From Marsupella aquatica (taxonomy: Eukaryota; Plantae; Marchantiophyta): a DNA stretch of 64,000 bases. This document shows positions 6,107 through 32,805 of the stretch, piece after piece. The first letter of the stretch is position 1. Each line of letters opens with the position of its first letter. The notes below the pieces were generated by a model. That model worked only from the letters and a program-made list of their open reading frames with translations. It did not search any database and was not told the origin of the DNA. A program made the translations under genes and the position numbers. The DNA is taken from contig OZ316892.1 of the NCBI GenBank assembly GCA_973895155.1, positions 11,782,238-11,846,237 on the forward strand, in the 5' to 3' direction.

Positions 6107-9100
6107 TGTGACGGGGTCCCCCGTCACTCGAAATCATGAATAATGGGTTGCAGAGGGGTGTGCCTTGTTAATAGCCACTGTAAATAAGCCATTTTTAAAT
6201 TTTTTTAGTTATTTCCGCCATTGTAGGTTGATGATGCCCCGAGTGACTTTGTATTCTTCCTCTTGTAACAGTTCTAAGATTTGTGGCGACCTAAGCAGGC
6301 AAATATTTTGGGACCTTAAAAAGCTAGAGGGCCAACCCCATTGGAATTATCGTTTGCTTGAGCTATCGTTGCCACCCCCCTTGTAATTTGAAGAAAAGGG
6401 AGCTTTGGGGGGATTAAAATTCCCCATTAGGGAGCCCTGCAAGTGACCAGGTGGCGCCCGGGAAACCTAGCCCTTGCATAGGGAGGCGCGCCACGCGAGC
6501 GAGGGTGCCGCAAGCCAGGGGCTCCCGTGAGCCGGGCCCAAAGGACGCGTGAGTGAAGGAGGGGGGGTATTAAACCCTCCCGCGAGGAGGGAGCAGGACC
6601 GGGCGAGCCCTGCATAGGGCCGCGAGCTCACCAGCCGCAGCCGCAAGTAGACGCAACGGCGAGGGGGAGAAAGCGAGAGGCGAGCCGGGGCGCATGGCTT
6701 GTGCGCAGCCGGGAGGTACCGGGCGGCTTGCCGGAGCCGGGAGGAGCCCGCGAGTAAGAGCCCAGGTGAGCCGAGCCGGGGCGCGAGGCGCAGCCGGGTC
6801 GCAGCCGGGAGGAGAAGATCGCGGAGTGGGGAGGGGGGCAATTAAGTTCCCTTGGGAAGGGCCCGCATGAGGGGCTGTGAGTAGGGGGGAATTAAATTTC
6901 CCCGGCCTTGGAGGACTGGAGGCCACCGCGAGTATGCCCCGGAAGGGAGGCGCGAGGCGCTCCCGCGAGTAGTGGGGGGAGATTAAATCCCCCATTAAAG
7001 CGCAGCTGGGATGCTTCGGAGGGCAGGTCAGAGGGGGGCAGGTACGCGCGCGGCAGAAGGGGGGAGAAAATACTCCCCGATACACGGGTTAGTCAATACC
7101 CAGGAGAGGGCAGCGAATGGCACCTGGTGCTTAGGGGTATACTTAAGGGGCGCCTGCGCCCTTAGGAAAGCCACCACTTCTTGCTTTCCCCTTAACTTTT
7201 TTCTTGCTTCCCTTGAGATGCCGAAAGCTTCCCTCAAAACTGCTTCTTTGTAAACAGTACCCTGGTTCTTGGTTCTCCAATTTTTTTCCCCTTTCTCTCT
7301 AGCTCGGCATGGAATTGGGGGACTCACTGTCTCCGAGCATTAACGGTGGCTGCAGTGAATTATGGCTGGGAAATTGAGATTGGGTCATTGATTGATCGGG
7401 ATACGGGGGCTGTTTCAGGCCAGGGAATTGACATTGCTACGGGTGACGGGATTTGGTGATTGAGGATTTGATTTCGGGATGCACGAATGCTAGATGAACC
7501 GGAGTTCAGTGTGGCACGCATTCGGAGATACAAGGCTGCTTACCGTGACTACGTGGAGACTTTGATTTCAAGGGAGAGAGAAGAGAGAGAAGCTACGATG
7601 AGCACGGGATTGGCAGTAGGTTCCACGCCGGTGGGTAGGAGGATTTTTTGTTGAATTTATCCCAAGACCTCCGCCAAGGTGATGGAGGATTGTCGGAATA
7701 TTTTCCAAGCCACCGGGGTTACAAAATTCATGAAGGTGGAGATTACCATCCCCCCGGGGAAGAGCTGGGACATTGAGGCCGCGATGGAGTTACGAACGGA
7801 GGGAATCTACTTTGAATGTCTCAAACGTGTAGTGCCCCATGTAGAGTTGGCTAGGCTGCTGTTTCTGGAGAATCAGAAATTCTCATTCACACCTCGGCAC
7901 ATCAGGGGAGAACTCACGTTGAAGATGATGGCCACTTGGGTGATTAATCCCACCTCCACCACTGCCATCCCTCTTTCCGCTGTCAAGGATGTTGAGTATA
8001 AGGGATTCCTGGCCAAGGTTCATCAATGGGTCCTTGGCAACGTGCAATCAGGGGTGGTGAATGAAGAACATTTCGTGGTAGCTATGGACATCAAGAACCA
8101 CCCAGCCCATGTGTACGGATGGTGGTACTACGGGTTGAAGAAGCTGTTGGCCGCTGACCTCGGGAGTGTGAAACCAGGTGGGGCTGTACATTTGATGGGG
8201 TCATTTGTATTGGCCAGGGCAGAAGGGTTGATTGGTTCCCCGGGACAGGAAGACACGGAATCATCTCTCACCACGGAGATCCGGAGTATTGCCACTACCG
8301 TTATCGGGAAGCTCACGGAGGAATCATCGTCGGCTGGTGGGGATGAAGATAGAGGAGAAGAAAACCAGGATGAGGACTACACATTGGAGTGGCTTGAATC
8401 ACTCGTGGGAGATCCGAAAGAGCCCCTGGCCTACAACATTCCGGATGTTTACCTGGCAGAGCTACGGGATTTCAGAGAGGGAGTCCATGAGGGACTCAAG
8501 CTAGTCCACGCATTGAGAGATTCTCTCAAGCACACCACAGCCAGAGTAGAGACGTTAGAGCAGAGTACCCTGTCTCTGAAGGAGGTGATCAAGGCCAAGG
8601 AGGAGACCATTCATGAGAAGGTTAAGCTTCTCCAAGCAGCTCACGTAGAGATCTCCAACTTGAAGGGAGCCTTGTCCACCAAGGCCAAGGAAGCAGAAGA
8701 GGTGGGAGCATTGAGACAAGCATTGGCCAAAGAGAAGCAGAATTCTGGAGAAGTGGTGGAGTGGAGAAACCAGGTGGGAGCACTACGGAGTCAGGTGGCC
8801 GCCTTTGAGACACGAGCAAAGAGGAGTGAGGCCTTGAGTCTGGGGAAACGGAAGAGCCCCGGCACTCCTAGCTCCATACTTTCTCCGGATTTGATCTCCC
8901 AGGCTATTGAGATGGTGGTGAAGGAGGTTAGTGGGAAGTATGGGCCCTTGTTGGATGGAGCCAAGAAGAGTCAGGAGAAGAGCAAGGGCTTGGAGAAGAA
9001 GCTCCGGGAGGTACGGAAATCATTACGGGAGGCTCAGGTCAGAACAGGGATGCCACCCAGGTCTGTCACCCCCGGGACTCCCATGGCCACAGGGCAAGTT

Positions 9101-10505
9101 CTACCGTTGGAGTTGCGGTCCGGAGAAGAGGCTACCCTATGGAAGGACACCATTGGTGAGGGGTACATTAAAGCGTGGCAGGCCTTGGCCAATTTGAGAA
9201 AGCAGGGGAGCACTAGCACAAGGAGTACCCCGGTAAAGAAGAAGAGAAGTGAAGTGGCACTCACTCCAGTGGAGAGTGATGAGGAGGCCCACTCACGGGG
9301 CTCAAGCCAGGGCACCGTGAGTGAAGAGGAGGAGGATTAGAGTGGTCGTACGGACGTGGTTGTACGGCCCCTGGACTTTCCAACTTTTTTTTGTGAGGGG
9401 TCACTCACGGGCTTGTTGGAAAGAGTTCGCGGAGCTGATTCCAACAAGAGGCGGCGCTCCTCAAACGGAGCCAGGATGAGCAGGTTATGGCCCGGCGAAG
9501 TTGTGTTTACGGGATACGGAAACGGTCATAACTTGGTCGTCCAATGTCCGTTTAGAGAGCGGTTGAGTGATTCGTGATCAGGAGGAGGAGAGCTATCCAG
9601 GGGTGAACTCAGAAGTGCAAGTGGAGGGGCGCCTAGTTTCGGCCATTGTGGGGTTCCTTGCAATTTCACGGTTCACGGAGTAACGTTGGGGCACCGTCGA
9701 AGGCACCGTCGGCCCCATTGTTAGTTTAGGGTTTAGGGTTTTTAGACGCATGTGTGTGCCGCATGGTTTTAGTTTAGGGGTTTCTTAGTGAAGGGTTTAG
9801 CGGCGCTGCTAGGGTAAGCCGCCATCGTTGTGGCCCCGTGAGGGGTGCTTTGGTGTGTTTTTTGGTATTTAGGGGGAGAGCCCCAGAGTTGTAAGGGGGG
9901 AACTCAGCGTAGTACTTGGATGCTTTGGAGTAGCTTTTGTGAGTAGCACACCGATTAGGAGAAGTTCAAGCTAGAGTAGTGAGGTGGAGAACGTAGCACT
10001 TGTCCCCGGGAGGCAGGAGTTGGGCAGACGGTAGGAGGCCGGGTTGCCCTTGCATGTGTTACGAGAAACACCAAGAGATATGGATTTGGCTTGAGGTTCC
10101 AATATTTTGTGTGTCACTTGTGGTTGCTTGTGTTGTCTGTTTTCCTCCCCTAGTGCGTGTGGTCGGTGTCGTTGTGGAAACATTTGCCCTTGTCACTAGT
10201 GTTCAAATCTTATTGTAAATGTTGGTATGCTTGCCCAAGAGAGGAGGGGGGTGGTGACAGCACTCACCCGGTGGGCATGAGTTGTAGATGGTAGGACCAG
10301 TCCCTTGGACTTGATCAAAAACGGAGAGACCAGTCGGTAGACTTGATCAAAAAATACACTTCCGGGAGCGGAATCAAACATACTCATACTTAGGTGTGGA
10401 AATCCTCCAAATAGCGTCCCTCCACGACCCCGTAATACGATACCAACAGTTTAAGCAAGGAAAAGTACGGTTTGCACGTATTAATCGTTGGACAGGCAAG
10501 TGACA
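6107..10505 (+). mobile_element. 4.4 kb TG..CA element (probable giant solo LTR) carrying a coiled-coil ORF, copy 1
   Basis: Starts TGTGAC and ends GTGACA, with 5-bp TSD GGGTG (6102-6106 / 10506-10510). Homologous to 24862-28890 at both ends and across the ORF. No internal LTR pair, PBS, PPT or gag/pol seen. Confidence 0.85.
7487..9340 (+). pseudogene. TE-borne coiled-coil protein of unknown function, one premature stop
   Basis: In frame with the 553-aa ORF at 7679; ATG 7487 aligns with MLDQPEF of copy 2. TGA at 7652-7654 replaces CGA (IFRRIYPK became IFC*IYPK). Confidence 0.8.
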
Positions 10506-11927
10506 GGGTGCCTACTGCAAATTAAAATCTCTGTGCCTATTGCACATTAAAGCAAATGGGTGCCTACTGCACACTCACGCAGAAAGGAAAAATATTTGAT
10601 AACTTGAGGGGGAGATCTCATGAAAGGCTTGGCCCCAAGCAATAGAACCCATGGGATGTGCCTACTGAACAAGTGTATTTTTCGCACCAATCAGTATTTT
10701 ACAATGGAACCATATGAGTTGGAACCATATGGCCAATTCTCAAAAATGAGGAATCTTTGTACACGATTGGTCAGGATGTTCACACATTCACTCACTAATA
10801 TTGGATGACATATCATGACTACTAAATTTGGACATAAAACAGACCTTATCATGATATGGTATCATATGATCATATGAGGTACGGTATCAAGTTGTAAGGT
10901 ACCATAAGGTGAGATATGGCCTGGGAAGGCACGACGAGAGATGGTGTGCTATATCATAATAGGATATCTGTATGATATGGATATGGTATATGTTATGATG
11001 TGACCAAGTTATGCCAACACCCAATCTAGGATTGGACACTCCAAACGGTTCAAAGGCCAAGGATTACAACCCACCACGTATCATCTTCATCCTGAATTAA
11101 TACCTTGCTTTTTTTTCCTTAATCTATGAACATCAAGGAGTATTCATTGCCAGCATGGAACGAGATGCATGATGCAGTCAACTTTGCTAACACAAACCAA
11201 GGAGGATCTTCCACAAGCCCATAGTGTTGACAGGCATTAAGAGACTTTGTACAAATTTCATATACACTATGTATTTACCCACTTAACCTAAAATGGTTCC
11301 ATAACATGTGGTGGTGGCACTCTTTCCCTCAGAAAGAGGTAGGAGGATTTTAATGAGACCACACCAATGGCTACCACAGTAAATACTTAATCTATTAAGG
11401 TTAGATGTTAACCCTAGACTGTGGTTCCCTTATATCCTATAAACAACCAAGGGGGAGTATTATAACCCAAAGTTTAGATTAACATCTATAGTTTAGGGAA
11501 GAGATAGTTACCATAACTACCACCATCTGTATATACCTCTTGGACCTCTAATAGATAGTAGTATTTTTTCCGATGCATTGGTGTATTATTCCATCTCAAG
11601 GCTTCCTACATTATAACAATACTCTAGATCTATTTGAGACATTCTAGCTTATTATTCTTTTCAACATTCAGAACAATACATATCTAACTCTCGATCTAGC
11701 TTGCCAGCTTTTACAACTTATGTCTGATTGTGTTGATGGCTACATCACCCTGTTCAAGAGCCAGTTTCTATCAGTTAGAATTTTCTGGATAGGTGCTCGA
11801 GACAAAGGCATAAGAAAGCACATCAAGTGAGCATATAATTGTCTCATCAATTTGCTTTAACATAAGTCTACAAACTATTTGATTTCATTATGGTCTTCTA
11901 GTCAGACTAAATTTAGGACTAATTAAT

Positions 11928-12271
11928 TGTTGAGCATAGACGACATTTGTAACGGCAAGCCCATGAACCATCCAACGCACAATAGTCGACACAGAGAGAT
12001 ACATGGTTCACCTCCACATGAGGCTACGTCCACGGGAACACACAAGAGCTTTATTGCACTCTAGGCCGACCGGCCATACCAAGCATCCACAGCACAAGCT
12101 CTCCCTATCTCTCAACTAGCTCCGTAACAATGAGCCTAAGTTCCACCAGGGTCTGGCATCAGCCCTGGCTATATGCACAATAGCACTATCGCTAACATTA
12201 GCTAAGTCCTAACCCGAATTAGACTAACTGTGGTTAGCTCATGAGTCACAAGGCTAGAGCAATATCTAACA
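11928..12271 (-). repeat. Copia 3' LTR
   Basis: Direct repeat of 32462-32805 with 12 substitutions by my count, all transitions. PPT adjacent at 12272-12282. Confidence 0.97.
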
Positions 12272-12467: not shown

Positions 12468-14656
12468 CTACAACTGGAAAACCTGCAAAGTAGCACGGTG
12501 TCTTGAGAAACTCTCCAAAGGAATCACTTTGGTAAAGACATCAGCGGGATTGAGCTTTCCATCAATCTTGACTAGCTCAAAAGTTTTATCAGACACTGCT
12601 TGCCTGATAAAATGGTACATGATATCAATGTGCTTCACCCTGCTATCCATCACCTGGTTAGCAGCCAAGTGAAGAGCACTTTGACTATCACAGTTTAGAG
12701 TCAATTTTCCATGCTCTAAATCCATCTCCGCGATCAACTTATCCAACCAAATTGCTTCCTTTGCTGCTTTTGCTGCTGCAACATACTCTACTTTTGTAGT
12801 AGACTGAGAAGTGCACTTCTGCAAGGTAGATTTCCAACTGATACATCCTCCTCCAAGAGTGTATAAAAACCCAGTTATAGTCCTCCTTGTATCCAGACAG
12901 CCTCCATAGTCAGAATCTACATAGCCAACTAACGTTCTATCTGATCTGTTATCAAATAGTAATCCATAGTCCTGTGTACCCTTGAGATACCTGAGAATCC
13001 ATTTCACAACTTCCCAATGTATCTTCCCTCGATTTGACATGAATCTGCTAACCTTGCCCATCGCTAGGGCCAAGTCAGGCCTAGTACAAGTCATCAAATA
13101 CATCAGACTGCCTACTGCCTTCTCATAAGGAATCTTAGCCATTAGACCTTTCTCCACACCATCCGTAGGAGAGAAAGCCGATGATAACTTGAAATGTGAA
13201 GCTAAAGGAATACTCACTGGCTTACAGTTCTCCATGTTGAATCGTGCAAGTACTTTCCTCGCATACTGGCCTTGACTCAAGCACAACTATCCAGTATCAG
13301 AGTTCCTAAAAATCTTCATGCCTAAGATCCTCTTGGCCTTACCAAGATCCTTCATCCTGAATTCAGCACTCAATTTCGCCTTGAGACTGTCAACCTCAGA
13401 TTGATCTTTAGCCACAATCAGCATGTCATCCACATAAATAACCAGAATGATGAAACCAAACACATCATTCTTGACTGATTTTGTATACACACAAGGATCA
13501 TACACCATCCTTGTAAAACCTTGAGCAAGCATGAAAACATCAAACCGCTTGTTCCACTGTCTGGGAGACTACTTCAATCCATATAAGGACTTGAGAAATC
13601 TGCAAACTAAGTTCTCTTGGCCCTTCTTCATAAAGCCTAGTGTCTGTCTCATGAAGACCAACTCTTCCAAGTTGCCATAGAGAAAGGCAGTAACAACATC
13701 CATCTGATCCATCACCAGACCAAAAAACACAACAAGTTGACACAAGATCCGAATTGTGGAATACTTAGCCATCGGTGAAAAGACCTCAATGTTGTAATCC
13801 ACTCCTTTCTCCTGAGTGAATCCCTTGGCAACAAGCCTTGCCTTGTAGATCTTGTCTCCAGCCTCTGAAGGACTGTCCTTCAACTTGTAAATCCACTTGC
13901 TGTCCACCACTTGCTCACCTCTTGGAAGCTCCATCAGCTCCCATGTCTTGTTGTCACTCAAAGATTGCAACTCCCTCTGCATTGCTGCATTCCACTCATG
14001 CTTCTGCTCTGAAGCACAAGCCTCACTGTACGAAGAAGGCTCTTCTTCTTCCAAGATCATCTTCATCAAGTGCAATGTCAATATTATCTAGCTTAGATGA
14101 GTTTGCCCATTGACCATACCTGGTAGGAGCTCTAGTAGAACGACTGGAAGTTCCTCTAGGAGATGACTCAGGCTGATCTGTTGTTGCTGCTGGTTGAATT
14201 TGAGGTACCCCAGCAACAATTTGCTCCTCTTGTTCCATCACAAGAACCAGCTCCAAGCCCGGAGCTTCTCCATCTCTCCTGTCATGAACAACATCATGAC
14301 TAATCTCCCCCTCAACCCGGTCCGGGATGAGAGATTTCCCTTGTCAGTATGGGAGTCTTGAGAACTCTCCCCCTCCTTTGATGATCTGGATTCATTAAAG
14401 GACACATCTCTACTGACAATTAGTTTACAGGTTACTGGATCCCATAACCTATAACCCTTCACACCTTTCTGATAGCCAAGGAAAATGCACTTCTTCGACT
14501 TGGACTCCAGCTTGGTTCAAAGCTGGGAAGGTGTAAGCACATAAACATCACATCCAAAAATCCTCAAATGTGAGTAATCTGCTGGACGCCCGTACCTCAT
14601 TTCAAATGGCGTCTTGAATCCAATAGAACTAGATGAAGAACAATTTACCAAATAAG
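12468..14656 (-). pseudogene. Copia pol 3' part: integrase C-terminus, RT, RNase H (stops and frameshifts)
   Basis: KGYRLWDP..VSRDVSFNE; YKARLVAKGFTQ; QMDVVTAFLYG; YVDDMLI; GYVDSDYGG; CDSQSALHL; NPADVFTK. Split over several ORFs. Confidence 0.95.
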
Positions 14657-14660
14657 CTGC

Positions 14661-15372
14661 TGTCGTGATATATAGTATCGTAGCCATAGTGTATCGAAAA
14701 CATACAAGTCACCGGCAAGGCATATGTGCAAGCTGCTAGCAACCAACATGCATAGAAAAAGTCCAATCACATTCACAAGTGCCAAGAAAAAGCAAATGAA
14801 GTGGTATGTACGTAGTGGAGGTGTAAACCTCTGTATATAAAAGGCGTAAGAGAAACAATTGTACTGAAATCGAATCGAAAACCGGCAGGATGCCAAGATC
14901 GGTCGGGAGCATCTAACGAATCACTGTGTGAATCCCGTGTACGGAACCGACAAGCACTGTCTGAGCTCTGTCAATAGCGATTCAAGAAGAACTAAAAACC
15001 CACAAAGAAAGACATGCCCTAAGCAAGCAAAGTCCTGGCGTCACACTAACAAGCACATTTGCTTCAAGAACGGCCCAGACTTGCTACAAGAACATGTCGC
15101 TAACTCAGGTAGTACACTAGCCCTAACTACATACCTAGCGGGCAGGCGAGGGACATGCCGATGTGCATAAGAGGCACTGTCCCTCGGCATGACAGCTGTC
15201 GTGACATATAGTATCGTAGCCATAGTGTATCGAAAACATACAAGTCACCAGCAAGGCATATGTGCAAGCTGCTAGCAACCAACATGCATAGAAAAAGTCC
15301 AATCACATTCACAAGTGCCAAGAAAAAGCAAATGAAGTGGTATGTACGTAGTGGAGGTGTAAACCTCTGTAT
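14661..15372 (-). repeat. Composite 3' terminal repeat of the Gypsy: A(14661-14836) B(14837-15194) gc A(15197-15372)
   Basis: The two A copies are 176 bp each with 2 differences seen. B (358 bp) recurs at 24288-24645. G7 PPT at 15373-15379. Confidence 0.93.
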
Positions 15373-15411
15373 CCCCCCCAGACCACAGCCAAAAGGAGGG
15401 CTGAAGAAAAT

Positions 15412-18400
15412 TTAGGTAGCACATGGAGCACAAGAAGGGCAAAACCATAACCCTTCTGGCACCTGGGTAAGTTCAGGCCGAAGGCAGAAAAGATGGTACC
15501 CTCCATTGCAATTGTCACACAGCAGCATCTGGTCAGCATCATCAATTCGCAAACACACCTTGCAAGGGTAGTCCACAGGTGGAATCCAAGTAGAAGTCAC
15601 AATGGTGGGATCTAGGTTAGGCAGATGACAAGGGGTGCAATTCTTGGCATTGTCAGCAATTGTGCGCCCATCTGCCCCTTGTAACTCTAGCACTCCAGAC
15701 GGTCGAATAGCTTTAACCCTGAGAATAGTACGACTGGTAGAGGTGTCCAGGGTGTCGTTAGCTTGCCGCTGCCAGTACACAAAATCTCCCACATCAAACT
15801 TCCTGACCTTGGGCTGAAAAGTGCCCCCTCGTGTGTGTGCATAACGCAGTGTGTCCCTATGTTGTGCAATGGCCAAATTCTCCATGGCCATGGGCATAAC
15901 CCTCCTGAATAGGGCAGCCCTCTCAGAGATCACATCAGACCAAGTCACAGCTGAATCCAAGTCCACCACCTGAAGCATGTGAGCAGCAATAGCAGAAGGT
16001 GGAACTGGGTGACGACCAAACAACAAGAAGTAGGGAGAAAAGTTAGACAGTGATGCATGTCTGGACATCCTATACCCCATGGCAATGTAGGGTAAGGCCA
16101 GGTCCCAATCCTCCTTGTTTTTGGTGAGGCAGATCTTCCGAAGACCCTTCTTGCATGTCTGAACCATGCGTTCTACCAAGCCATCTGCCTGTGGGTGATC
16201 TCGTGATGTCCGATGATGATCAATGAGGGCCTGATCAAGCAGCTCCTGGAACTCTCCTCTAAACTCTGAGCCCTGATCAGTGAGACATTCTGCACAAGCT
16301 CCAAAACGACTGAGAACTTGTTGCAGGAATGCCTGGCTGGTGCTACGGGAGGTCTTATCCGGCAATGCCACAAGTTCTATCCACTTGGAGAAATGCTCTA
16401 TCATGATCATGATGTAGAGATTACCCCGAGACGTGAGGGGTAATTCTCCAGCCAAATCACATGACCAGCGATAAAACATGCCCTGAATGGGGAGTGGATG
16501 AAGTGTGGGTTGCCGAGATGTGAAAGAAGTCCTCACCCTATCACACTGTTCACACCGGGCAATAACATCTCGAACCTGGCCATGCATGCCTCTCCAATGA
16601 TAATGAGGGACCAAGAGGCTGTAAGTCCTCTTAACGCCAAAATGACCAAGCTCAGAATGTACCTTACGGATAAGGCCAACCCTCTCATGAATGGGTGGAA
16701 CCACCACTTCCCTGTCTGGCAAGCAGCGCACGAGATGATCTCCCTTCCACAAGTAGCGCTTGGACCTTTGCTGAATTTGGTCTCTCTGGGCAGCAGTAAT
16801 ATGTGTGGGGTACTCCCCATGCTGCAAAAATCTCAGAGTTTCGTTGTCCTCCCATATGTCCACCACAGGTTGGTCAACAACATAGCATGGCAGCAAAGCA
16901 AGATAGGTCGATGCATGAAATGTAGGCAGGATGGAAACCTGGTCAAAATCCTGTCGTGCATCTGAGGAATCATCAGAGGCAATCAAAGGGCTGCGGGACA
17001 TAGTGTCAGCATTTTGATGTGTCACACCAGGCCTATAAATTACCTCAAAATTATACTCCTGGAGTATGAGCGCCCAACGAGCAAGCTTGCCAGTAAGCTT
17101 GTCGTTGGTCATCAACCACTTCAAGGGCTGGTGGTCGGTGTAGAGAACAAACCTGGTCCCATAGAGGTAGGGCCTGTAATGTATGACAGCCCACACAACA
17201 GCAAGGCATTCACCCTCATAAGAAGAATAATGACTCTCTGCCTGATTGTTGCTCCTGGATGCATAGGCAATGACGTACTCTTTACCTTCCTCATCATGCT
17301 GGCCCAGAATGGCACCAATCCCAAGGGCACTCCAATCTGTGTGTAGCACAAAGACCTTGCTGAAATCAGGTCTTCTCAGCACCGGGTATTCTGAGAGCTT
17401 CTCCTTCAAAGTGACAAATGCTGCTTCAGCATCTGTACTCCATGTCCAAGTCACATTCTTTTTCAACAAAGAGTACAATGGATGTGCAATGGTACTGAAA
17501 TCTTTGATGTAGATCCGGTAGTAATTGCACAACCCAATAAAGCTCCTAAGAGTGTGAACATCAGTAGGAGTGGGCATTTCCAGGATGGATACCACTTTGG
17601 CCCAGTGAGCCATGGTTCCATTTGGAAGAATGCGGTGCCCAAGGTATACTACTGATCTGACAGCAAATTCACACTTCTTGGGGTGTATTTTCAGGTTCAC
17701 CTTCTTAAGCCTCATGAATAGCTCCTCAAGGTCAAGTAGATGTTGGTCAAATCCTTTGCTGTGGACCAACACATCATCAATGTAGCATTTCATAAACTCA
17801 GCACCTTGAAGAACCTGGTCCATGACTCTTTGAAAGAATATGGGCGCATTCTTCAAGCCAAATGGCATCACCAACCACTCCCATAGTTGGTTACTACCAT
17901 GGAAAGCTGTTTTCTTGCGATCCTTTGCAAGCAGCAAAATCTGGTTAAAGCCTTGCCTTAGATCCACAAGAGTGAAGATGTCTGAGTCTCCAATGCTGTC
18001 AAATAGCTCCTCTGGCCGTGGCATGGGGTACCTGTCCTGGGGTGTGACCAGGTTCAGTGGCCTGTAGTCCCCACACATGCGCTTCTCTGTCCACAATCCA
18101 CTGGAATCCTTCTTTGCTGGCATCACTGTAGCTGCTGCAAAATCTGATGTAGATGGCTGAATAAGACCAGCTTCATATAACTCTTGGCACCTCTCATCCA
18201 CTAGCTGCCACTCATGCTTACTCAAATAATGTCTCCGCCTGAAGATAGGTGTTTCATCAGCCAACTCAATGGAGAACTGCATGGTCTTGCACTTACCCAC
18301 GTCCTTCATAGAGAAAGCAAACACATTCTCATGCTTGAGGAGCAAATTCAGCAGCTGGTCCTTCTGTCTTTTACTCAGGTGGTTGCCCATGATAAATGTG

Positions 18401-19380
18401 TAGTTGGCAACACTAGGAATAGGACCTGATGTACTCGTACTTGAAGAGCCAGAAGTGCCAGCCTCTCCACTGTCCAAGCTGCTAGCATGCTGCTGATAAG
18501 GTGATGAGGCCTCTCCAAGGCCTGTTGTACCTGCTGATCCGAAGTGGTCCACACCATGAAACTCAGAAATAATGTTAGCCGCATTACAAGGGACCTCCTC
18601 CCCCCCAACACTTGGACTGAAGTGGTGAGTGTTGGACAGAGGTAAGTGCACCTGGTCTGGATGCCATGCAGCAGCACTATGGAGTGGTAAGGCTGGAGCT
18701 CCTAATGCTGGAGGAATGTACATCTGAAAAAGGATGCAAGTGACCAGAAGCCAAGTGAGAGCATTGAGATCCATTACCCTGCCAAGTAAAGCATTCCTGG
18801 CTAGCCTGGTGATTTTGGTGTGACCTGTAGTACCGGGTTGGAAGCCCATAGCCCGTTCTCTCTCCTCAGGACTAGGTTCATCCCATGTACCGGTAGAATG
18901 TCGATAAACCAGACCAGGACCATCACCCTGAAAAGCATGTGCACCTAGAAAGGACACAAATGTAGGCCAAGCAGCACGGGGTTGTCCAAAGGTATTGGCT
19001 GGATACCAAGGTGCTGGCTCTTGCCGTGTAACTGGTTGGCAAGAACTGTCAGGATCCAAAATCTGGTCCACTGTAAGGTTAGTGTCCTTGGATGTGTGGT
19101 GAAGAGCCATCTCCAGCAAGGAAGGTGGTGCAAGGTTAGTCCAAAAGTTACGAAGACGATGTGCATAAGAACCACAGTGCACTGCATCAATGAGAAGGGG
19201 TGGTCCCAAGTAGTGCTGGACCACACTGAAATCCTCTTTGACCTGTGGACGCTGGTCAAACTGAGATGGAGTATTTATTCTCAATGATATAACCAACAGC
19301 AGGATAAAGGGATTGAGCCCAGGTGAGAATCTGAACCAATGCTGTGAAAAGGCCAGAACGAGAATCATGCTGTCCAGCAC
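15412..19380 (-). CDS. Gypsy pol: DNMT C-terminal half, RT, RNase H, integrase, C-terminal PHD finger
   Basis: Uninterrupted 1322-codon frame. RT: RMCGDYRPLN, MPFGLKNAP, YIDD. RNase H: LHTDWS, YTDHQPL. Integrase: HSELGH..CEQC, CDLAG/TDQGSEF/GLVERM. PHD: CKVC..LLCDNCNGGYHLFCL..WFCPSC. Confidence 0.93.
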   Translation of the reverse strand: MLDSMILVLAFSQHWFRFSPGLNPFILLLVISLRINTPSQFDQRPQVKEDFSVVQHYLGPPLLIDAVHCGSYAHRLRNFWTNLAPPSLLEMALHHTSKDTNLTVDQILDPDSSCQPVTRQEPAPWYPANTFGQPRAAWPTFVSFLGAHAFQGDGPGLVYRHSTGTWDEPSPEERERAMGFQPGTTGHTKITRLARNALLGRVMDLNALTWLLVTCILFQMYIPPALGAPALPLHSAAAWHPDQVHLPLSNTHHFSPSVGGEEVPCNAANIISEFHGVDHFGSAGTTGLGEASSPYQQHASSLDSGEAGTSGSSSTSTSGPIPSVANYTFIMGNHLSKRQKDQLLNLLLKHENVFAFSMKDVGKCKTMQFSIELADETPIFRRRHYLSKHEWQLVDERCQELYEAGLIQPSTSDFAAATVMPAKKDSSGLWTEKRMCGDYRPLNLVTPQDRYPMPRPEELFDSIGDSDIFTLVDLRQGFNQILLLAKDRKKTAFHGSNQLWEWLVMPFGLKNAPIFFQRVMDQVLQGAEFMKCYIDDVLVHSKGFDQHLLDLEELFMRLKKVNLKIHPKKCEFAVRSVVYLGHRILPNGTMAHWAKVVSILEMPTPTDVHTLRSFIGLCNYYRIYIKDFSTIAHPLYSLLKKNVTWTWSTDAEAAFVTLKEKLSEYPVLRRPDFSKVFVLHTDWSALGIGAILGQHDEEGKEYVIAYASRSNNQAESHYSSYEGECLAVVWAVIHYRPYLYGTRFVLYTDHQPLKWLMTNDKLTGKLARWALILQEYNFEVIYRPGVTHQNADTMSRSPLIASDDSSDARQDFDQVSILPTFHASTYLALLPCYVVDQPVVDIWEDNETLRFLQHGEYPTHITAAQRDQIQQRSKRYLWKGDHLVRCLPDREVVVPPIHERVGLIRKVHSELGHFGVKRTYSLLVPHYHWRGMHGQVRDVIARCEQCDRVRTSFTSRQPTLHPLPIQGMFYRWSCDLAGELPLTSRGNLYIMIMIEHFSKWIELVALPDKTSRSTSQAFLQQVLSRFGACAECLTDQGSEFRGEFQELLDQALIDHHRTSRDHPQADGLVERMVQTCKKGLRKICLTKNKEDWDLALPYIAMGYRMSRHASLSNFSPYFLLFGRHPVPPSAIAAHMLQVVDLDSAVTWSDVISERAALFRRVMPMAMENLAIAQHRDTLRYAHTRGGTFQPKVRKFDVGDFVYWQRQANDTLDTSTSRTILRVKAIRPSGVLELQGADGRTIADNAKNCTPCHLPNLDPTIVTSTWIPPVDYPCKVCLRIDDADQMLLCDNCNGGYHLFCLRPELTQVPEGLWFCPSCAPCAT

Positions 19381-19891
19381 CGTGACCAGCAGCTGAAAAC
19401 CCTTGGCATTCCCAACCAGCTATGATCAAATCAAGGGAGCCAAGAAGGGTTAAGTGCCAGTGCTGGACAAGCTGGATATCTGGAGGGAAGAAAGAAAATG
19501 CAGACTTCCATGCACTATGTGGTAACTGCTGGGGAAATCGCTCTGAAAATTCCAGCAGACGGGATTCAGCCACTTGCCTTGCACCTGGATCAATATCCAC
19601 ATAGATGTACTGCTTCACCACCATGCTAGACTTTAGGAGAGCTTCCAGGCCTGTAGAAATGCCACCAAAAAGCTCAAGCAATGTAAGGCCATCTGAAGGA
19701 GGAGTCCATGTAACTGGTGCGCTCAAGATTGGGGCTATTGGTTGGCCATTGTGCTGCCCTAGATCCTCAAATTTGCGCAATGCAGCCACCAAAGGTCTAT
19801 GGGCTGCTTGGAGCCGTTGTACCACCTCTGGTTGATGATCCACGTGGCTGGAAAGTGCTACTATACGTGCAGCAGCATGTGCAATAGCCAC
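18740..19891 (-). pseudogene. C5 cytosine DNA methyltransferase domain (DNMT3/DRM-like motifs) inside pol
   Basis: Motif I LELFGGIS, II YVDID, IV AGWECQGFS, VI IIEN, VIII AHRLRNFWTNL, IX ERERAMGF, X RNALLGRVM. A 4-bp duplication (tatt) near 19272-19279 causes the frameshift. Confidence 0.88.
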
Positions 19892-19918
19892 CTCATCATC
19901 ATCCTCCTCAATCCAATC

Positions 19919-20950
19919 CTACAATGGGTGGTTGACATAGGTAGCTGTGTGCACTGCTTTCAACACACAGTGGTGAGCCATAGGTGTATGGGCACCATGC
20001 AAATCAAGTGGAATGTAGCCCAAGTGTGAGCCATCCGTATGCCAATCAACTCTGTAGTATGCATGCTCATGCCAATTGTCAATGGTAAAACCTGGTGGGA
20101 ACAAAGCCTCCTGGCCAATGAGCACATCATACGTAGTGGCATTGGTAACCAAACATCTGACTGGGAAATGCAATTCCTGATCTGTACCTCCATTAAAAGT
20201 GAGAGTGAGTAAAGTAGAACTCTCACCCAGCACATCCTCCACAGTGCCACTAGCAGTCCGAATGTGCCACCTGGATTGCTGTAAATGATCAGTCAACAGT
20301 CCCATCTTCTTGGCAAACTGAATGCCCACTATCACTGGTTGAGCACCTGTGTCTAGCATGACCACCTGAGGAGTGTGACCCTCCAACTTGACTGCTGAAT
20401 TCCTGTTGTCAACAATGGCAATGGTGGTGGAAACTAAAGTCCTGTCACTAGGCACCACTTTTGGCAAATGATGAGGTACCTTGTGAAGGGAGTTAGTGTC
20501 CACGGTCTTTCCACTCAACAACATAGCCAGGAAAGATGGAGCAACATGACCAGAATCAAGTGTAGCTCTGGTCACACAATCAGCAGCAATCGGTACTGGG
20601 GCAGCCAAACCAGTGGAAACATGTAAAGGAGAAGAAAAAGGTCCAGTATGTACATGAGATTGGACCTCCAAAACCGGTGTCACAGGGGCTGATGAAGAAT
20701 GCAGTGAGCCCTCTAGCGCTCTGATGACAGCTCTAGCATCCAGCTGTAAATCATGGCAACTGAAAAGTGGAGTTGTAAGAATCCTTTGTGCCATACCGGA
20801 GGTGAAATGCTCAAGCAGCTCAGGAGAAACAACTCCCTGTGAAATGTCAGCAGCACCTGGTGGTGGAATGGATGTAGCTGCAGCTCCCTCCCCCCTCGCC
20901 AACAAGGTGCGCTCTTCAGCAAGTGTGCGTGGCTGAAAAGATTGGGGCAT
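19919..20950 (-). pseudogene. Gypsy aspartic protease region
   Basis: VMLDTGAQ catalytic motif and YDVLIG. A single in-frame TAG (19919-19921) separates it from the DNMT frame. Confidence 0.85.
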
Positions 20951-22592
20951 GACAGCTGGCTCTAGTCAGAGGACCGGCAGCAAGACCAGCAGCCTGTACA
21001 ATGCGGCGTGTGGGAGCAATACAGGAGGCAGCACTGGCCTGCTGGTAAGCAAAATAGGAAGGGCAGAATGAATCTGAAAATTCTGCTGTAAGGCCAGGCT
21101 GTGGAGCAGAGGACAGCACACACTCACCCATATGAGCACCAAATGGTAAGCCATAGAAAGAGTGGGGTAGAGGTGCTGAACTGTCAGCGGTGCCTGGGCC
21201 AGGGATGGGTTGCACGTGACCAGCCGATTGAGAAGGACCAACAGAGGCAGTGGACTTGCCTTTGATGTTGGCAAGTTGGGCACGTAAGGACTCAACTTCA
21301 TGAGTCAAAGACTGGAGTTGAGTTGCCTGTGCGTTGTGAGCCTCCTTCTGAGCTGGTTGCTTCTGTGGCTGCTTGGGCAATTTGTTAGCATCGGGTGCTT
21401 TGCCACTGGAAGGAGGAGCAGTGGATGCAGTAGGAGCCCTCCTAGCTGGTGGGGGAGTGGAAACAGGAGTAGGATGAGTGGCCTGCTGTCATAGCTGCTT
21501 CCTCTCAGGGAATTTGGCAAAATAGACTGCCTCCAAGTGGCTCACTTTTCCGCAAAAATCACAAGATAGGTCCTCAGCAACAATATCACATTCATTAGCC
21601 TTGTGATTAGGGTTACCACAGTAGTTGCAAGATGACAGCATGAAAGCAGCATGTGCTGGCTTGGTCTTGGAACCATACTGTGGCACACGGGGAGGAGTGA
21701 CCAGTGTAGGGGCAGCAGCCTGGTACCTGGATCGCGGTGGACGTGCAATATTGGCCTCATAATGTGCATGGGCCAACTCAAGTTTCTCAGCAGTGTCATA
21801 GACATTGAGCAAGGTGTACCTGTCTCCAAACTCTGAGAATACTTGTTGCAACACTTGCGAATGGAGAGCTGGTGTGCCCTCCAATGCGCGAAGATAGCGA
21901 TGAGCAGCTTCCAGGTCAGTGATGCTCTGGGTGTCCTCCTTCAGCTTGAGAAGTCGGCGATACATCATCTTCAATGTTTCATCGCGCTGCCTCACAAAGG
22001 TGGCCAACTGCATGATTTTATCAGCACTCTTGATTGGGAATTCTAATTCAAGAACCTGAAAAAACTCAGCCACTGGATCAACAAAGGCAAGAGAATCAAT
22101 GGTGGGAGAAATGCCTGATGTAGCCTGTGCCAAGACAGTGGGAGTAACTGGCGCAGTGGTGGGAACTGGAGTAGGAGGGGAAGTGGCAGGAGCAACAGCA
22201 TGGGCTGCAATGGCATTCTGTAAGGCCAATTGTGAGGCTGCCGCAATTGCATTGGCATAGGTAGGGTTAGGCAACTGTGTGACAGCAAGCAGCCGTTGAG
22301 AATGCTGCTCATACACATCCAAAGCCTCATGGTGCACATACCTGGCTAGCTGCTTAAATGCAAATGCATTTGTGAAATTGTTGCCATACTTCAACTCCAA
22401 TTCGTAAACGACAGTGTAGAAAGTGGATTTGAACTCACGTAAAGAGACAGTGCCTGGCCGCCCGCTGAAGCGCTCAATGCGGCCAGATGAGTGGCTGGCA
22501 TCCATGCTGTATGTCGGTGAAGCAGGAACAACCACTGATGCAGAAGGGGTAAATGGCAATGAAGTGATAGCAGGCTTGGGAGTAGTGGTCAA
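20916..22592 (-). pseudogene. Gypsy gag with two CCHC-type knuckles; in-frame TGA at 21489-21491
   Basis: ERFSGRPG capsid-like start; CNYCGNPNHKANEC and CDFCGKVSHLEAVY. ORFs 21489..22592 and 20916..21380 share a frame. Confidence 0.8.
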
Positions 22593-23269
22593 GCGACCGC
22601 CAAATGGAGCAGAAGGATTGCGTGGTGTGGGTGCTGCTGCTGTCTGTGGACGTCGTCAAAATTGCCGAGACTCCAATGAAATTGGCACCAATGGTCGTGG
22701 ATCACTTCGTAAATGGTACCTGGGTGTCGGTGGCGATGTGCTGCTACCTCCTGGCACGTCGGCTGACATGCTGCATGCTCACCTGGGTGCCAATGGGAAA
22801 GAAACTGACAAGAAAAAGAAATGGCAGCCCCAAGGCTAGGAAATAAACAGTGCGAGGCAGAAATGTGTCGAATGTGTAAACACACAGAAAAACCATCGGC
22901 AAAGAAAAGACCCTTAAAAACTCCAATTGGACTGGTGTTGTGCTTGCTGGATTGACTGTCTGATGAATATGCCAGGCCCTCAGCTTTATGCAGATGACAC
23001 GTGGCGGCAGCAAAGAAATCCAGAAAAATGGGCCCTTAAAAATGTAAACCTGGGCCCCCCTTAAGTGTATACATCGGCCTTTTCAAATGTATAAACATGG
23101 GGCCCGGTTAAGTGTATACATCGGGCCCCGATGTGGACCCGGGAACTGGCAGCAGGTCGATCGTCGCACGGCGAAAAAGTGAGAAAGGCCGAAAAAGGGG
23201 AAAATAGCCGAGGCAAGCTCGCAGGTGGCCGGAAAGAGGAGAAAAGACGTCGCGAGGTAGGGCAAAAAA

Positions 23270-23700
23270 AACGGGGCCCTCTTAATGGCATGAGCCCTCC
23301 ATAGGGCTTCGTGCCCCACCTTATGTGCTCCCGAAAAGGGGCTATGAACTCCCCCCTCCTCTCCTTCAATGCAATTTGGGCCTCGTGCCCTGGCAAAAGA
23401 CTCCAGTGTGAGGAGTCAAGTGTACTCCTCCCCCTCCCTGCTTTAATTACTCCATAGGGCCTCGTGCCCTGGTGACAGTATGCCCGAAGGCAAGGGAGTC
23501 GAGTGTACTCCCCTCCCCTGCTTCAATGTTGCTTAGGGCCTTGTGCCCTCTCCTGGCACCCTCGCTCCCCCTCCTTCTTTACTGCAGCATAGGGCTTCGC
23601 GCCCTCTCCTGGCACACTCGCGCTGCCTTGTGCTCGGCTCCCCTTCCCCCCATGCTTTAATTCTCCATAGGGCTTTGTGCCCTCTGTCCTCTCGCTTGCT
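23270..23700. repeat. Degenerate tandem repeats in the Gypsy 5' leader
   Basis: Recurring (cc)atagggcttcgtgccc and ctcccctccc..cttcaat motifs, about 6-7 copies. Confidence 0.7.
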
Positions 23701-24287
23701 TATGGCAGGGCAAAAAGAAAGGGAGTCGAGGCAGGAAAAATGGGCGAGAAAATGCCGAAAAAGGGAAGAAACATCCCGGATTGAGGAGGGACTACGGCCG
23801 GTAAAGGGAGATACAGCCGAGGCAAGGGCATGGTGCCCTATGCACGGCCTGTGCAGGGCGTCGCGAGGCAACAAAACGGGCTCAACGGCAGCCGTGGCCG
23901 AAAAGTGGCAACAAACACAAAACGGCCCCAAAAGCAGTCGAGGCAACGGTTGATGCAATGTCGGCAGCAGCAGGTTGTGGCCGGAATGTGAAGGGCCAAC
24001 GGCCTACAAACCACGGGTTGCAGTCGGGAGGTGGTCGTGCGGCAAACGGCAGTGACAGTCGGAAGCAGCAAAGGAGTCGCGGATGCAACCGGAAAAGGAA
24101 CTCCTGACCCCTTCGGAAGCATGGATATGTGTATACACTTAAGTATACACATAACCACATAAACCCATAACTTTCATTCCGTCGCTCCAATGTTCGTCAA
24201 AGAAATTGCAATGGCTTCACCAAAAATTGTCAAAATCGCCACGAGCAATCTTCTTCCCGTCACCGCTAACTCGACAGTTCTTCTTGA

Positions 24288-24645
24288 ATAAAAGGCGTAA
24301 GAGAAACAATTGTACTGAAATTGAATCGAAAACCGGCAAGATACCAAGATCGGCCGGGAGCATCTAACGAATCACTGTGTGAATCCCGTGTATGGAACCG
24401 ACGAGCACTGTCTGAGCTCTGTCAACAGCGATTCAAGAAGAACTGAAAACCCACAAAGAAAGACATGCCCTAAGCAAGCAAAGTCCTGGCGTCACACTAA
24501 CAAGCACATTTGCTTCAAGAACGGCCCAGACTTGCTACAAGAACATGTCGCTAACTCAGGTAGTACACTAACCCTAACTACATACCTAGGGGGTAGGCGA
24601 GGGACATGCCGATGTGCATAAGAGGCACTGTCCCTCGGCATGACA
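24288..24645 (-). repeat. 5' terminal repeat of the Gypsy (segment B only)
   Basis: 358-bp direct repeat of 14837-15194 with about 11 substitutions; no A segment next to it. Confidence 0.93.
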
Positions 24646-24649
24646 CTGC

Positions 24650-24856: not shown

Positions 24857-25972
24857 AAGATTGTCACTTGCCTCTCCAACGGTTAATACGTGCAAACCGC
24901 ACTTTTCTTCGCTTAAACCGTTGGTATCGTATTACGGGGTCGTGGAGGGACGCTATTTGGATTCTTTTCACACCAGGATGAGTATTTTGGTTTCCGCTCC
25001 CGGAAATGTAGGTTTTGATCAAGTCTACCGACTACCCTCACCCCACAGCTTTTGATCAAGTCCTGCCGACTACCCCACTACACCTTCACTCGGAGTCACC
25101 CAAAGAGTGCTGTCACCACCCCTACTCACAAGGCCGACTCAAACCAAGCAAGTTTCTTCAAATCATAGAACGGGAGAACACAATTCGGAAAGCGAAAAAG
25201 GGAGAAGGAACACACAACAAAAGCCCATCAAGTCAAATGTACAGATCCATATCTCTTGGGAAAAACGATACACATTGCATGAGTAACCCGGCCTCCTGCC
25301 GTCTACTCAACTCCTGCCTCTCCGGACAATGAGTATGGCTCCCCCTCACTACTCTGAACACGCTTTCAAACTCCTCAGGCTCCACTCTATCCCTCCTTGC
25401 TAACTTCACACTGAGTCCCCCTAACTACTTCGGGGCTATCCCCCTAAATACTGAAAAATCACACCAAAGCACCCCTCACAGGGTCACAACGGTGGCGGCT
25501 ACCCTAGCGGCGCCGCTAAAACCTTGCACTAAGAGAAATCCTTAAACTGAAGAGGAGCATGCGGCACACACATGCTGCTAAAACCCTAAACCCAAAACAA
25601 GGGGGCCGACGGTGCCTTCGACGGCGCCCCAACAGTACACGTGAACCCTGAAAGTGAGAGGCACCCCAAAATGGCCGAAACTAGGTGCCCTTCCAAGTGC
25701 ACACCTGAGCTCACCCCTGGATAGCTCTTCTTTTCCTGCTTCCGAATCACTAAGTCGCTCCCTCAACGGACTTCAGACGCCTGAGTTATGGCCGTTTCCG
25801 TACCGCAAAAACATAAGTTCTCCAGGCCATAACTTGCTCATCCTGGCTCCGTTTGAGGAGCGCCGCCTCTTGTTGGAATCAGCTCCGCGAGCTCATCCCA
25901 ACAAGCCCATGAGTGACCCCCCACTAAAATGTTGGAAATCTGGAGGCCGTACACCCACGTCCGTACGCCTAT

Positions 25973-27829
25973 CTAATCCTCCTCTTCTTCTTCGCTCTCG
26001 GTGCCCGGACTTGTGCCCCGTGAGTGGTCCTCCTCCTCATCACTCACGGGAGTGAGTGCCACCGTACTTTTCTTCTTCTTCGACGGAGTACTCTTAGTGC
26101 TGCTGCTCCCGCGCTTCCTCAAAGCAGCCAAGGCCTGCCACGCCTTGATGTACCCCTCACCAATTGTGTCCTTCCAGAGGGTAGCCTCTTCTCCGGACCG
26201 CAACTCCAACGGTAGAACTTGCCCCGTGGCCATGGGAGTCCCGGGGGTGACAGACCTGGGTGGCATCCCCGTACTGACCTGAGCCTCCCGTAACGATTTC
26301 CGTACCTCCCGGAGCTTCTTCTCCAAGCTCTTACTCTTCTCCTGACTCTTCTTGGCTCCATCCAACAAGGGTCCATACTTCCCACTAACCTCCTTCACCA
26401 CCATCTCGATAGCTTGGGAGATCACATCCGGGGAAAGTGTGGAGCCAGGTGTGCCGGGACTCTTCCGTTTCCCTAGACTCAGGGCCTCACTTCTCTTCGC
26501 TCGTGTCTCAAAGGCTGCCACCTGACTCCGTAGTGCTCCCACCTGGTTCCTCCACTCCATCACTTCTCCAGAATTTTGCTTCTCTTTGGCCAATGCTTGC
26601 CTCAACGCTCCTACTTCTTCTGCTTCCTTGGCCTTGGTGGACAAAGCTCCCTTCAAGTTGGTGATCTCTACGTGAGCTGCATTGATGTGCCTGACCTTCT
26701 CATGAATGGTCTGCTCCTTGGTCTTGATCACCTCCTTCAGTGACAGGATGCTCTGCTCTAACGTCTCTACTTTGACTGTGGCGTGCTTGAGAGACTCCCT
26801 CAATGCGTGGACTAGCTTGAGTCCCTCGTGGACTCCCTCTCTGAAATCCCGTAGCTCTGCCAAGTAAACATCCGGAATGTTGTATTCCAGAGGCTGTTTC
26901 GGATCTCCCACGAGTGATTCAAGCCACTCCAATGTGCAATCATCCTCCTGGTTCTCTTCTTCTCTATTATCCTCCCCACCAGCAGACAATGATTCCTCCG
27001 TGAGCTTCCCTAAAACGGTAGTGGCAATACTCCGGATCTCCGTGGTGAGAGATGATCCCGTGTCTTCATGCCCCGGAGAACCAATCAACCCTTCTGCCCT
27101 GGCCAATACAAATGACCCCATCAAATGTACAGCCCCACCTGGTTTCACACTCCCGGGCTCAGCGGCCAATAGCTTCTTCAATCCGTAGCACCACCATCCG
27201 TACACATGGGCTGGGTAGTTCTTGATGTCCATAGCTACCACGAAATGCTCCTCATTCAGCACTCCGGATTGCACGTTGCCAAGAACCCGTTGATGCACCT
27301 TGGCCAGGAAGCCCTTATACTCAACATCCTTGACAGCAGAAAGAGGGATGGCGGTGGTGGAGGTAGGATTGGTCACCCAAGTGGCCACCATTTTCAACGT
27401 GAGTTCTCCCCTGATATTCCGAGGTGTGAATGAGAATTTCTGATTCTCAAGAAACAATAGCTTAGCCAACTCCACATGGGGCACTACACGTTTGAGACAT
27501 TCAAAGTAGATTCCCTCCGTTCGGAACTCCATCCCGGCCTCAATGTCCCAGCTCTTCCCTGAAGGGATGGTAATCTCCACCTTCATGAATTCTGTAAGCC
27601 CGGTGGCTTGGAAAATGTTCCGACAATCCTCCATCACCTTGGTGGAGGTCTTGGGATAAATTCGACGAAAAATCTTCCTACCCACCGGTGAGGAACCCGC
27701 TGCCAATCCCGTGCTCATCATAACTTCTCTCTCTTCCCTTTCCCGTGTAATCCGAGTCTCCACGTAGTCACGGTAAGCAGCCTTGTATCTCCGAATGCGT
27801 GACGCACTAAACTCTGGTTGATCTAGCAT
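25973..27829 (-). CDS. TE-borne 618-aa protein: N-terminal globular region, acidic linker, long coiled coil, basic NLS-like tracts
   Basis: Intact ORF, highly similar to 7487-9340; GKRKSP and KKKKS motifs. No gag/pol motif recognised. Confidence 0.8.
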   Translation of the reverse strand: MLDQPEFSASRIRRYKAAYRDYVETRITREREEREVMMSTGLAAGSSPVGRKIFRRIYPKTSTKVMEDCRNIFQATGLTEFMKVEITIPSGKSWDIEAGMEFRTEGIYFECLKRVVPHVELAKLLFLENQKFSFTPRNIRGELTLKMVATWVTNPTSTTAIPLSAVKDVEYKGFLAKVHQRVLGNVQSGVLNEEHFVVAMDIKNYPAHVYGWWCYGLKKLLAAEPGSVKPGGAVHLMGSFVLARAEGLIGSPGHEDTGSSLTTEIRSIATTVLGKLTEESLSAGGEDNREEENQEDDCTLEWLESLVGDPKQPLEYNIPDVYLAELRDFREGVHEGLKLVHALRESLKHATVKVETLEQSILSLKEVIKTKEQTIHEKVRHINAAHVEITNLKGALSTKAKEAEEVGALRQALAKEKQNSGEVMEWRNQVGALRSQVAAFETRAKRSEALSLGKRKSPGTPGSTLSPDVISQAIEMVVKEVSGKYGPLLDGAKKSQEKSKSLEKKLREVRKSLREAQVSTGMPPRSVTPGTPMATGQVLPLELRSGEEATLWKDTIGEGYIKAWQALAALRKRGSSSTKSTPSKKKKSTVALTPVSDEEEDHSRGTSPGTESEEEEED

Positions 27830-28253
27830 CCATGCATCCCGAAATCAATTTCTCAATCACCAATCCCGTCACCCGTGGCAATGTCAATTCCCTGGCCCGA
27901 AACAGCCCCCGTAGCCCGATCACTTAAATTCTCTCAATTTCCCGTCACTACTCCGTGCGGCCGCCACTAATGCCTGGAAGAATGACGCCAGCAAGCCCCA
28001 CTAATCCACCATGAAAGAGAGAGCTTCAAAAATAATTAGAATCTGGAGAGAGCTTCCGGCAAGAGAGAGAAGAACCCCGTTTTTGCTTTCGGCAATGAGA
28101 GGGTCGTGCAAAAGGAAGAGGGAAAGAAAAAGGAAGGAAAAAAAAATAGAACCGAAAAAACTCCTGGCGCCTTCGCCATGCGCCCCGGCCCATTTCTCGG
28201 GCCTTACCCTTGCGTCCTCCTGCGCGCGGCCCTATGCAGGGCGCGCGGCCATT

Positions 28254-32459: not shown

Positions 32460-32461
32460 CT

Positions 32462-32805
32462 TGTTGAGCATAGACGACATTCGTAACGACAAGCCCATGA
32501 ACCATCCAACGCACAATAATCAACACAGAGAGATACGTGGTTCACCTCCACATGAGGCTATGTCCACGGGAACACACAAGAGCTTTATTGCACTCTAGGC
32601 CGACCGGCCATACCAAGCATCCACAGCACAAGCTCTCCCTATCTCTCAACTAGCTCCGTAACAATGAGCCTAAGTTTCACCAGGGTCTGGCATCAGCCCT
32701 GGCTATATGCACAACAGCACTACCGCTAACATTAGCTAAGTCCTAACCCGAATTAAACTAATTGTGGTTAGCTCATGAGTCACAAGACTAGAGCAATATC
32801 TAACA
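32462..32805 (-). repeat. Copia 5' LTR
   Basis: TG..CA termini, followed on the minus strand by the PBS; TSD TTAAT at 32806-32810. Confidence 0.97.

Follow-up and report, generated by a model that had tools for sequence, protein, structure and literature searches.

Split direct repeats in a Ty3/Gypsy retrotransposon of the liverwort Marsupella aquatica and its probable insertion from an end-joined cDNA circle

The stretch of DNA analyzed here, a 64,000-nt window of contig OZ316892.1 from the liverwort Marsupella aquatica, carries a Ty3/Gypsy retrotransposon with split direct repeats on its minus strand. All coordinates refer to this window, and the repeats were named A (176 bp) and B (358 bp). 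In element orientation, the order was B, primer-binding site (PBS), internal region, polypurine tract (PPT), A, gc, B|A, starting with TGTCA and ending with CGACA. Repeat comparison placed a lone 5' B with the TGTCA start at 24288..24645 (minus), a 3' B at 14837..15194 (minus), which would represent the remainder of U3 together with R and U5, and a terminal A at 14661..14836 (minus), which closes the element with CGACA. The PPT, seven G in the element and seven C on the plus strand (15373..15379, minus), directly adjoined the other A (15197..15372, minus), which, judging from the sequence and from relatives, is the start of U3 as reverse transcriptase (RT) would set it. Between this A and the 3' B lies a GC spacer (15195..15196, plus-strand reading) within an intact palindrome at 15190..15201, which reads TGACA-GC-TGTCG on the plus strand and CGACA-GC-TGTCA in the element. 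We predict this palindrome to be an internal attachment (att) site that is cleaved by integrase and passed to progeny. The inserted copy had TG..CA termini, with CTGC at each flank (14657..14660 and 24646..24649). Since few differences were found between the two A copies (2 of 176 sites) or the two B copies (11 of 358), and no indels, the insertion is young.

The insertion disrupts a Copia element of high copy number within its integrase gene, and the Copia reading frame across the site was shifted by exactly the four duplicated bases. Both the sequence and empty-site joints identified CTGC as the target-site duplication (TSD): in contigs from four of four sequencing runs the flanks were joined, with 9989-9990 bases skipped, 9989 being the element plus one CTGC. 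The window's Gypsy family was high-copy in the runs examined, and none of the listed contigs of the same runs spanned the whole Gypsy element. Misassembly of the window copy can be excluded by indirect means only, since many independent insertions of relatives share its layout. The coordinates and repeat order proposed in a first-pass annotation of the window all held on re-examination, as did its account of a palindrome inside the long terminal repeat (LTR) and of a 4-bp TSD, the latter now backed by the empty-site contigs.

The longest frame encodes 1335 aa (15412..19419, minus), to which profile and homology searches assigned the C-terminal part of a DNA methylase, RT, RNase H, an HHCC-DDE integrase with a catalytic triad that is intact in sequence (D988, D1048, E1083) and a PHD finger; no chromodomain match was obtained in Pol. 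A separate frame holds the N-terminal portion of this C5 cytosine methyltransferase (19256..19918, minus; PF00145, 2e-6; 46% identity over 72 aa to a Klebsormidium nitens protein) and lies next to an aspartyl protease frame (19919..20965, minus; PF13975, PF13650). Two further frames parted by a stop (20916..22655, minus), the first of which ends in a Cys/His motif, are likely gag, an assignment made by position because no Pfam match was found there. Stops or frameshifts near 21489, 20916-20965, 19919 and 19256-19419 split the coding region, and the window copy is defective. A nested insertion at 20956 was considered and rejected, as the difference was an indel in paralogs and the same motif is present in the window. 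The order protease, RT, RNase H, HHCC-DDE integrase and the 4-bp TSD (4-6 bp in Ty3/Gypsy) were those of Ty3/Gypsy elements, and the best relative of solved structure was Ty3 Gag-Pol (1.7e-90). A tyrosine recombinase was not found in the 25 frames of at least 100 aa scanned within the element. Named homologues came from a liverwort (63%), Klebsormidium, Closterium and volvocine algae; Pol shared 41% identity over 1250 aligned residues with the K. nitens methylase-Gypsy protein KFL_009030040. In the integrase core (16168-16275), the distance from the second D to the E was 35 positions in all 28 relatives that were aligned, against a usual spacing of 36, and this may be a mark of the clade. Further, the region 18500-19918 represents a cytosine methylase carried by a high-copy retrotransposon family in a land plant; a 2019 opinion paper stated that methylase-bearing retrotransposons are lacking in land plants, tracheophytes being the example given (PMC6338049).

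To compare the termini, we used a metagenome scan, from which the best 80 of 418 related stretches were taken, mostly belonging to a sister family at 70-80% Pol identity. The PBS of the window element directly follows the 5' B (24275..24287, minus), and its 13 nt are the perfect complement of B positions 201-213 (24433..24445, minus), a match found in 0 of 300 shuffles. We predict the latter segment to be both transcript 5' end and self-primer; in the sister family, the corresponding position lies 32 nt downstream of a TATAAA box. Of 15 sister-family copies, seven had a PBS with 12 complementary nt and one had 10, whereas pairing had decayed in the other seven; two pairing positions that differ between the sister family and the window were changed on both sides. 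Self-priming of the Tf1 type is therefore likely for this element. Given that the PPT adjoins A and that a probably self-priming PBS follows B, A-gc-B would be the LTR as RT defines it, with the att site within U3. As the first-pass annotation had stated, this PBS/PPT-bounded unit ends in AT..AT and not in the expected TG..CA, which lies inside it, so that the two full TG..CA LTRs of a Ty3/Gypsy element, with PBS and PPT as their inner borders, were not found.

The same arrangement was observed in the relatives. Counting loci without merging by site, the PPT was followed by A in 53/80 and by B in 0/80, and the PBS came after the B end in 17/17 and after the CA end in 0/17; ordinary TG..CA LTRs bordered by PBS and PPT, which could have overturned the earlier reading, were thus sought and none was seen. 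When loci with the same flanks were merged, 22 insertions showing A-NN-B were obtained. Their spacer was 2 nt long in all 22 sister insertions (GC 4, AC 9, GT 6, AT 2, AA 1), being GC or its deamination products in 21. Among the 11 sister insertions with both ends, the TSD was an exact 4 bp in eight, differed by one transition in two and was lacking in one (L040, in which the 5' B is truncated). Even in distant loci (49-53% Pol identity), the same palindrome followed the PPT in 5/8, and L067 carried a full A-B-A block. For the window's own family the evidence was weaker: an ordinary-LTR joint was absent among the 15 best-supported of 86 joints. The layout is a real feature of the clade as a whole and not a one-off.

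The B|A junction of the window element (14836..14837, minus) reads AT|AT, without a base gained or lost, as noted previously. Judging from how the junction varies in relatives, it would be a precise join between the predicted right end and the predicted left end of the cDNA that RT produces. Of 22 independent junctions, 11 were precise, six lacked one AT, one lacked 1 nt, three had larger deletions and one had element-internal fragments after B; in L055, A was cut to about 29 bp with the TSD still perfect. Precise and minus-2 junctions were both present in both A subtypes, and junction types were mixed across subfamilies, which argues that the junction is not inherited. The B|A junction is thus likely to be a fresh end-join made at each insertion. 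With regard to the A copies, the distance was 0.080 within and 0.113 between insertions (n=17), and no alignment column was fixed between the two A positions, suggesting that both A copies derive from one template, which is a prediction of LTR reverse transcription. A short first A in L002, L040 and L068 was examined as a sign of separate inheritance and rejected, the A of L009 (apparently the site of L002) being full length. Separately, in L011:3986-5156 and in L058 what followed a precise B end was sequence from inside the element itself, one fragment of 650 bp in inverted and one of 420 bp in direct orientation, with no A within 2.5 kb.

Similar layouts have been recorded in green algae. 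The legend of Fig. 4c in de Mendoza 2018 describes KnitGypsy-Dnmt3 of K. nitens as having DIRS-like repeats and Gypsy domains, without a mechanism (PMC5890265). Like this element, known for its layout from the legend only, the window element combines DIRS-like repeats with a homologous C5 methylase ahead of RT in a Gypsy Pol, the two features by which we tentatively assign them to one clade; unlike it, it resides in a land plant and is high-copy. The description of KnitGypsy-Dnmt3, as far as it was available, does not discuss an att palindrome, self-priming, TSD or mechanism (PMC5890265), and within the literature covered the name appears only in de Mendoza 2018. In Chlamydomonas reinhardtii, Gypsy-7a_cRei, which is active in laboratory strains, has a left LTR from which the last 8 bp present in its right LTR are missing (Craig 2023, Fig. 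6A legend, PMC9940879), and 86 new insertions of it were reported in one PacBio-assembled strain (PMC9940879). We read by eye the entry ends in the C. reinhardtii repeat library (Supplemental Dataset S15, PMC9940879; 150 of 158 occurrences). In this portion, 12/24 numbered Gypsy families had the last bases of the LTR plus gc after the PPT: the internal entries of families 2, 3, 6, 7, 8, 9, 10 and 11 ended in this way, families 5, 21 and 24 showed the pattern reversed, and family 18 ended in CA-gc. Seven families looked ordinary and five could not be judged. The A piece measured 6-8 nt in families 2, 7, 8, 9, 10, 11 and 24. Gypsy-7a_cRei and other C. reinhardtii Gypsy elements resemble the window element in their PHD finger in Pol and in entries ending with PPT, last LTR bases and gc. 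They differ in that A is 6-8 or about 50 bp rather than 176, and several start with TGG past the LTR, like a tRNA primer site; Gypsy-7a_cRei, with its 8-bp A, is moreover active. The earlier statement that no description was known therefore needs qualifying: the layout appears in the two legends, while the mechanism was not found in the available parts of either paper.

We propose that the element probably inserts from an end-joined cDNA circle that integrase opens at the palindromic CA^GC^TG of the 5' LTR. The RNA would begin within the 5' B and prime itself, as the conserved, covarying complement suggests, and ordinary reverse transcription, given the observed positions of PBS and PPT, would yield [A gc B]-internal-[A gc B]. 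The outer cDNA ends would then be joined as B|A, probably by host end-joining; the junctions themselves vary as described, and the agent is presumed. Integrase is predicted to cleave both strands at CA^GC^TG, leaving CA-3' ends with 2-nt 5' overhangs, which would resemble normally processed LTR ends. Concerted strand transfer could then produce the TG..CA termini and 4-bp duplication seen in the inserted copies, which would be circular permutations of an ordinary two-LTR cDNA. In the insertions examined, the 5'-LTR att alone had been used, and no other product retains a promoter together with a 3' R and, for the next round, an att site that is intact. The short A pieces of Chlamydomonas bear on the order of events: an A of 6-8 nt is too short to act as a lone integrase end, which argues for joining before cutting. 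With so short an A, the right arm of att can form only once the ends have been joined. In these families the B|A arm would be found at the 5' site alone, which would also explain the asymmetry there, though not where A is 176 bp.

Several observations weigh against this proposal. Cutting a circle at its 3' att would yield a mirror form, B|A-gc-B..A, which the first-pass annotation had named among the forms to be expected; it occurred in none of the 11 insertions that were complete with two LTRs (p=0.001, two-sided, against a 50:50 expectation; the denominator becomes 10 if the TSD-less L040 is excluded), and A lay upstream in 0/17 independent 5' ends. A symmetric two-LTR circle is therefore not sufficient. 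With A at 176 bp, the surroundings of the two att sites of the circle are identical for over 170 bp in either direction, which means that the model requires an additional rule. Twelve further independent 3' ends had A alone, two of them being reduced alleles of full sites and most having no visible 5' end, and a minority of mirror forms may be hidden among them. Non-deamination variants of A were found in one copy only in 60 cases and were shared in 24, and the minus-2 junctions fit equally well with an RT template jump or with slippage after insertion. In addition, the counts come from the sister family at the stated identity rather than from the window's own, and the Chlamydomonas families are likened to it by layout alone, their membership of the clade being presumptive. 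Circle formation, internal cleavage and integrase activity are what we infer from sequence. Overall, then, of the circle and internal integrase cut suggested at first, the fresh end-join junctions fit, and the missing mirror form does not. The companion suggestion that B..A copies arise from one-LTR circles was dropped: in each of the pairs L068/L069 and L076/L061 the flanks are the same, the extra BA being present in one member and absent from the other, a difference that reflects recombination or assembly collapse.

Among the alternatives, RT itself might make B|A by jumping between the cDNA ends, blunt or with a 2-nt clamp, after which a nicked circle or overshoot molecule would be cut at att without host end-joining. 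The loss of one of two self-complementary AT dinucleotides in 6/22 junctions and the AT..AT ends common to the window and the sister family would suit such a jump, and a jump on one strand could account for the use of a single att. However, precise joins formed the commonest class (11/22), the long deletions and captured fragments resemble end-joining repair, and AT after the PPT was not universal in distant loci; we consider this route unlikely. Somewhat less plausible still is that cutting precedes joining, i.e., that the 5'-LTR att of a linear cDNA is cut, both pieces are inserted and the B/A break is repaired in the chromosome. The product and the junction scars would be identical, early double-stranded DNA in the 5' LTR could explain the asymmetry, and the scrambled internal DNA after B in L011 and L058, lacking A nearby, would suit failed repair. 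Against this, a piece of 6-8 nt, such as the A of several Chlamydomonas families, can hardly be held by an intasome as a separate integrase end, and TSDs matched in 10/11 insertions, so mis-joins were few.

The remaining two alternatives fare far worse. Inheritance of the A copies and junction through a long RNA, with the circle inserted by a tyrosine recombinase acting in cis or in trans as in Ngaro/PAT elements, would account for a repeat order that is the same as that of DIRS-type split repeats (the latter by legend, PMC5890265). It is nevertheless largely refuted and most improbable: no recombinase was found in the frames scanned within the element, the TG..CA ends are flanked by 4-bp duplications of varying sequence, junction type varies among close relatives, and the A copies evolve in concert. 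A one-off rearrangement or misassembly of an ordinary element is even harder to credit and is refuted for the sister family. B+A does read as an ordinary 534-bp TG..CA LTR, but the joints that such an LTR entails (PPT then B, 0/80 related loci; PBS after a CA end, 0/17) did not occur, the 15 best-supported joints of the window's family include none, and the same layout is present in algae.

The end-joined circle can be set beside several known systems. In IS3-family transposition, abutted ends with a short spacer are cut from a circle by a DDE enzyme, which resembles the route proposed here; unlike it, these are bacterial DNA transposons whose transposase makes the junction. For retroviruses, integrase cleavage at two-LTR circle junctions is reportedly treated by Panganiban and Temin (1984). 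Foamy-virus integrase cleaves the palindromic LTR-LTR junction to leave 2-nt 5' overhangs (PMC1180852), and integrase cleavage of palindromic circle junctions has been proposed for HIV-1 (PMC4372172), although both papers, in the parts consulted, treat two-LTR circles as a dead end or, at best, a back-up. As in these viruses, a DDE integrase is predicted to cut a palindromic att on both strands of the window element to give processed ends. In the viruses, however, it is the circle junction that forms the palindrome, an ordinary provirus results, and the contribution of this route is small or contested; here att lies within U3 away from the junction, and insertion by this route appears to be obligatory. 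PAT/Ngaro elements share the split direct repeats (one repeat, coding region, then second, first and second repeat) but use a tyrosine recombinase (PMC12440569), in contrast to the DDE integrase, TG..CA ends and TSD found here. Self-priming is known for Tcn1, and the Tf1/Sushi/Tcn1 chromoviruses likewise have a PBS that can pair with the predicted 5' end of their RNA; unlike the window element with its PHD finger and methylase, they have ordinary LTRs and a chromodomain (PMC6317226). Troyka, another LTR lineage with unusual termini, was rejected as a match, as it has CG..CG ends, a 3-bp TSD and two ordinary LTRs and is confined to animals (PMC12440569). In the literature covered (Repbase Reports, theses, most subscription journals and figures lay outside it), we found no account of an end-joined-circle route for an LTR retrotransposon. 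Thus, the layout had been noted before, and the mechanism is apparently new.

On this basis, we lean towards the view that in a large green-lineage branch of Gypsy, extending from Chlamydomonas to land plants, the ends that RT makes have become distinct from those on which integrase acts, and that transposition must pass through an end-joined circle. If so, joining itself would create a usable att in short-A families, and circularization would license integration. Such elements would be a natural case of the abandoned idea of two-LTR circles as integration precursors, and a successful clade depending on them would alter the standard account of integration by LTR elements. They would connect the integrases of retrotransposons with DDE transposases that cut circles, and would show a way in which split repeats can evolve with no tyrosine recombinase involved; extrachromosomal circular DNA would directly measure their activity. 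In practice, LTR finders requiring two full LTRs will overlook or mis-split such families.

Some additional observations were made on the family and the window. Selection against intact genomic att sites was not supported, the mutation rate being within the range of other CHG sites. In the window, R-U5 had diverged more than U3 (8/158 vs. 5/376, p=0.025, post hoc); this trend was weak in the sister family and follows CpG content. Among viral contigs, a protein search returned one irrelevant locus, and a 16-nt att pattern gave 19 matches, none with Pol homology. At L024:1790-1929, a CA att end was joined to an inverted B piece, through autointegration or insertion into the repeat of another copy, and a B..A copy in L037 (4165-4173 and 13220-13227) lacked a 4-bp TSD, its flanks fitting an 8-bp duplication with two transitions.

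Outside the element, the host Copia spans 11927-32760, with direct repeats at 11927-12226 and 32461-32760 (97%) and an RVT_2 match at 13569-14087, and carries at least one other nested insertion besides the Gypsy. Another repeat is present as an inverted pair (7388-10505 and 24862-27927), each copy with a coiled-coil-like frame of 560-620 aa; the one frame scanned gave no convincing Pfam match. Long minus-strand frames of 907 and 253 aa at 56828-60508 probably belong to a host gene; the 907-aa frame had no Pfam match, and we take the two to resemble plant molybdenum-cofactor-sulfurase-like proteins. Lastly, a segment of about 750 bp is duplicated at 41941-42704 and 60736-61711, approximately 19 kb apart, with 94-98% identity.

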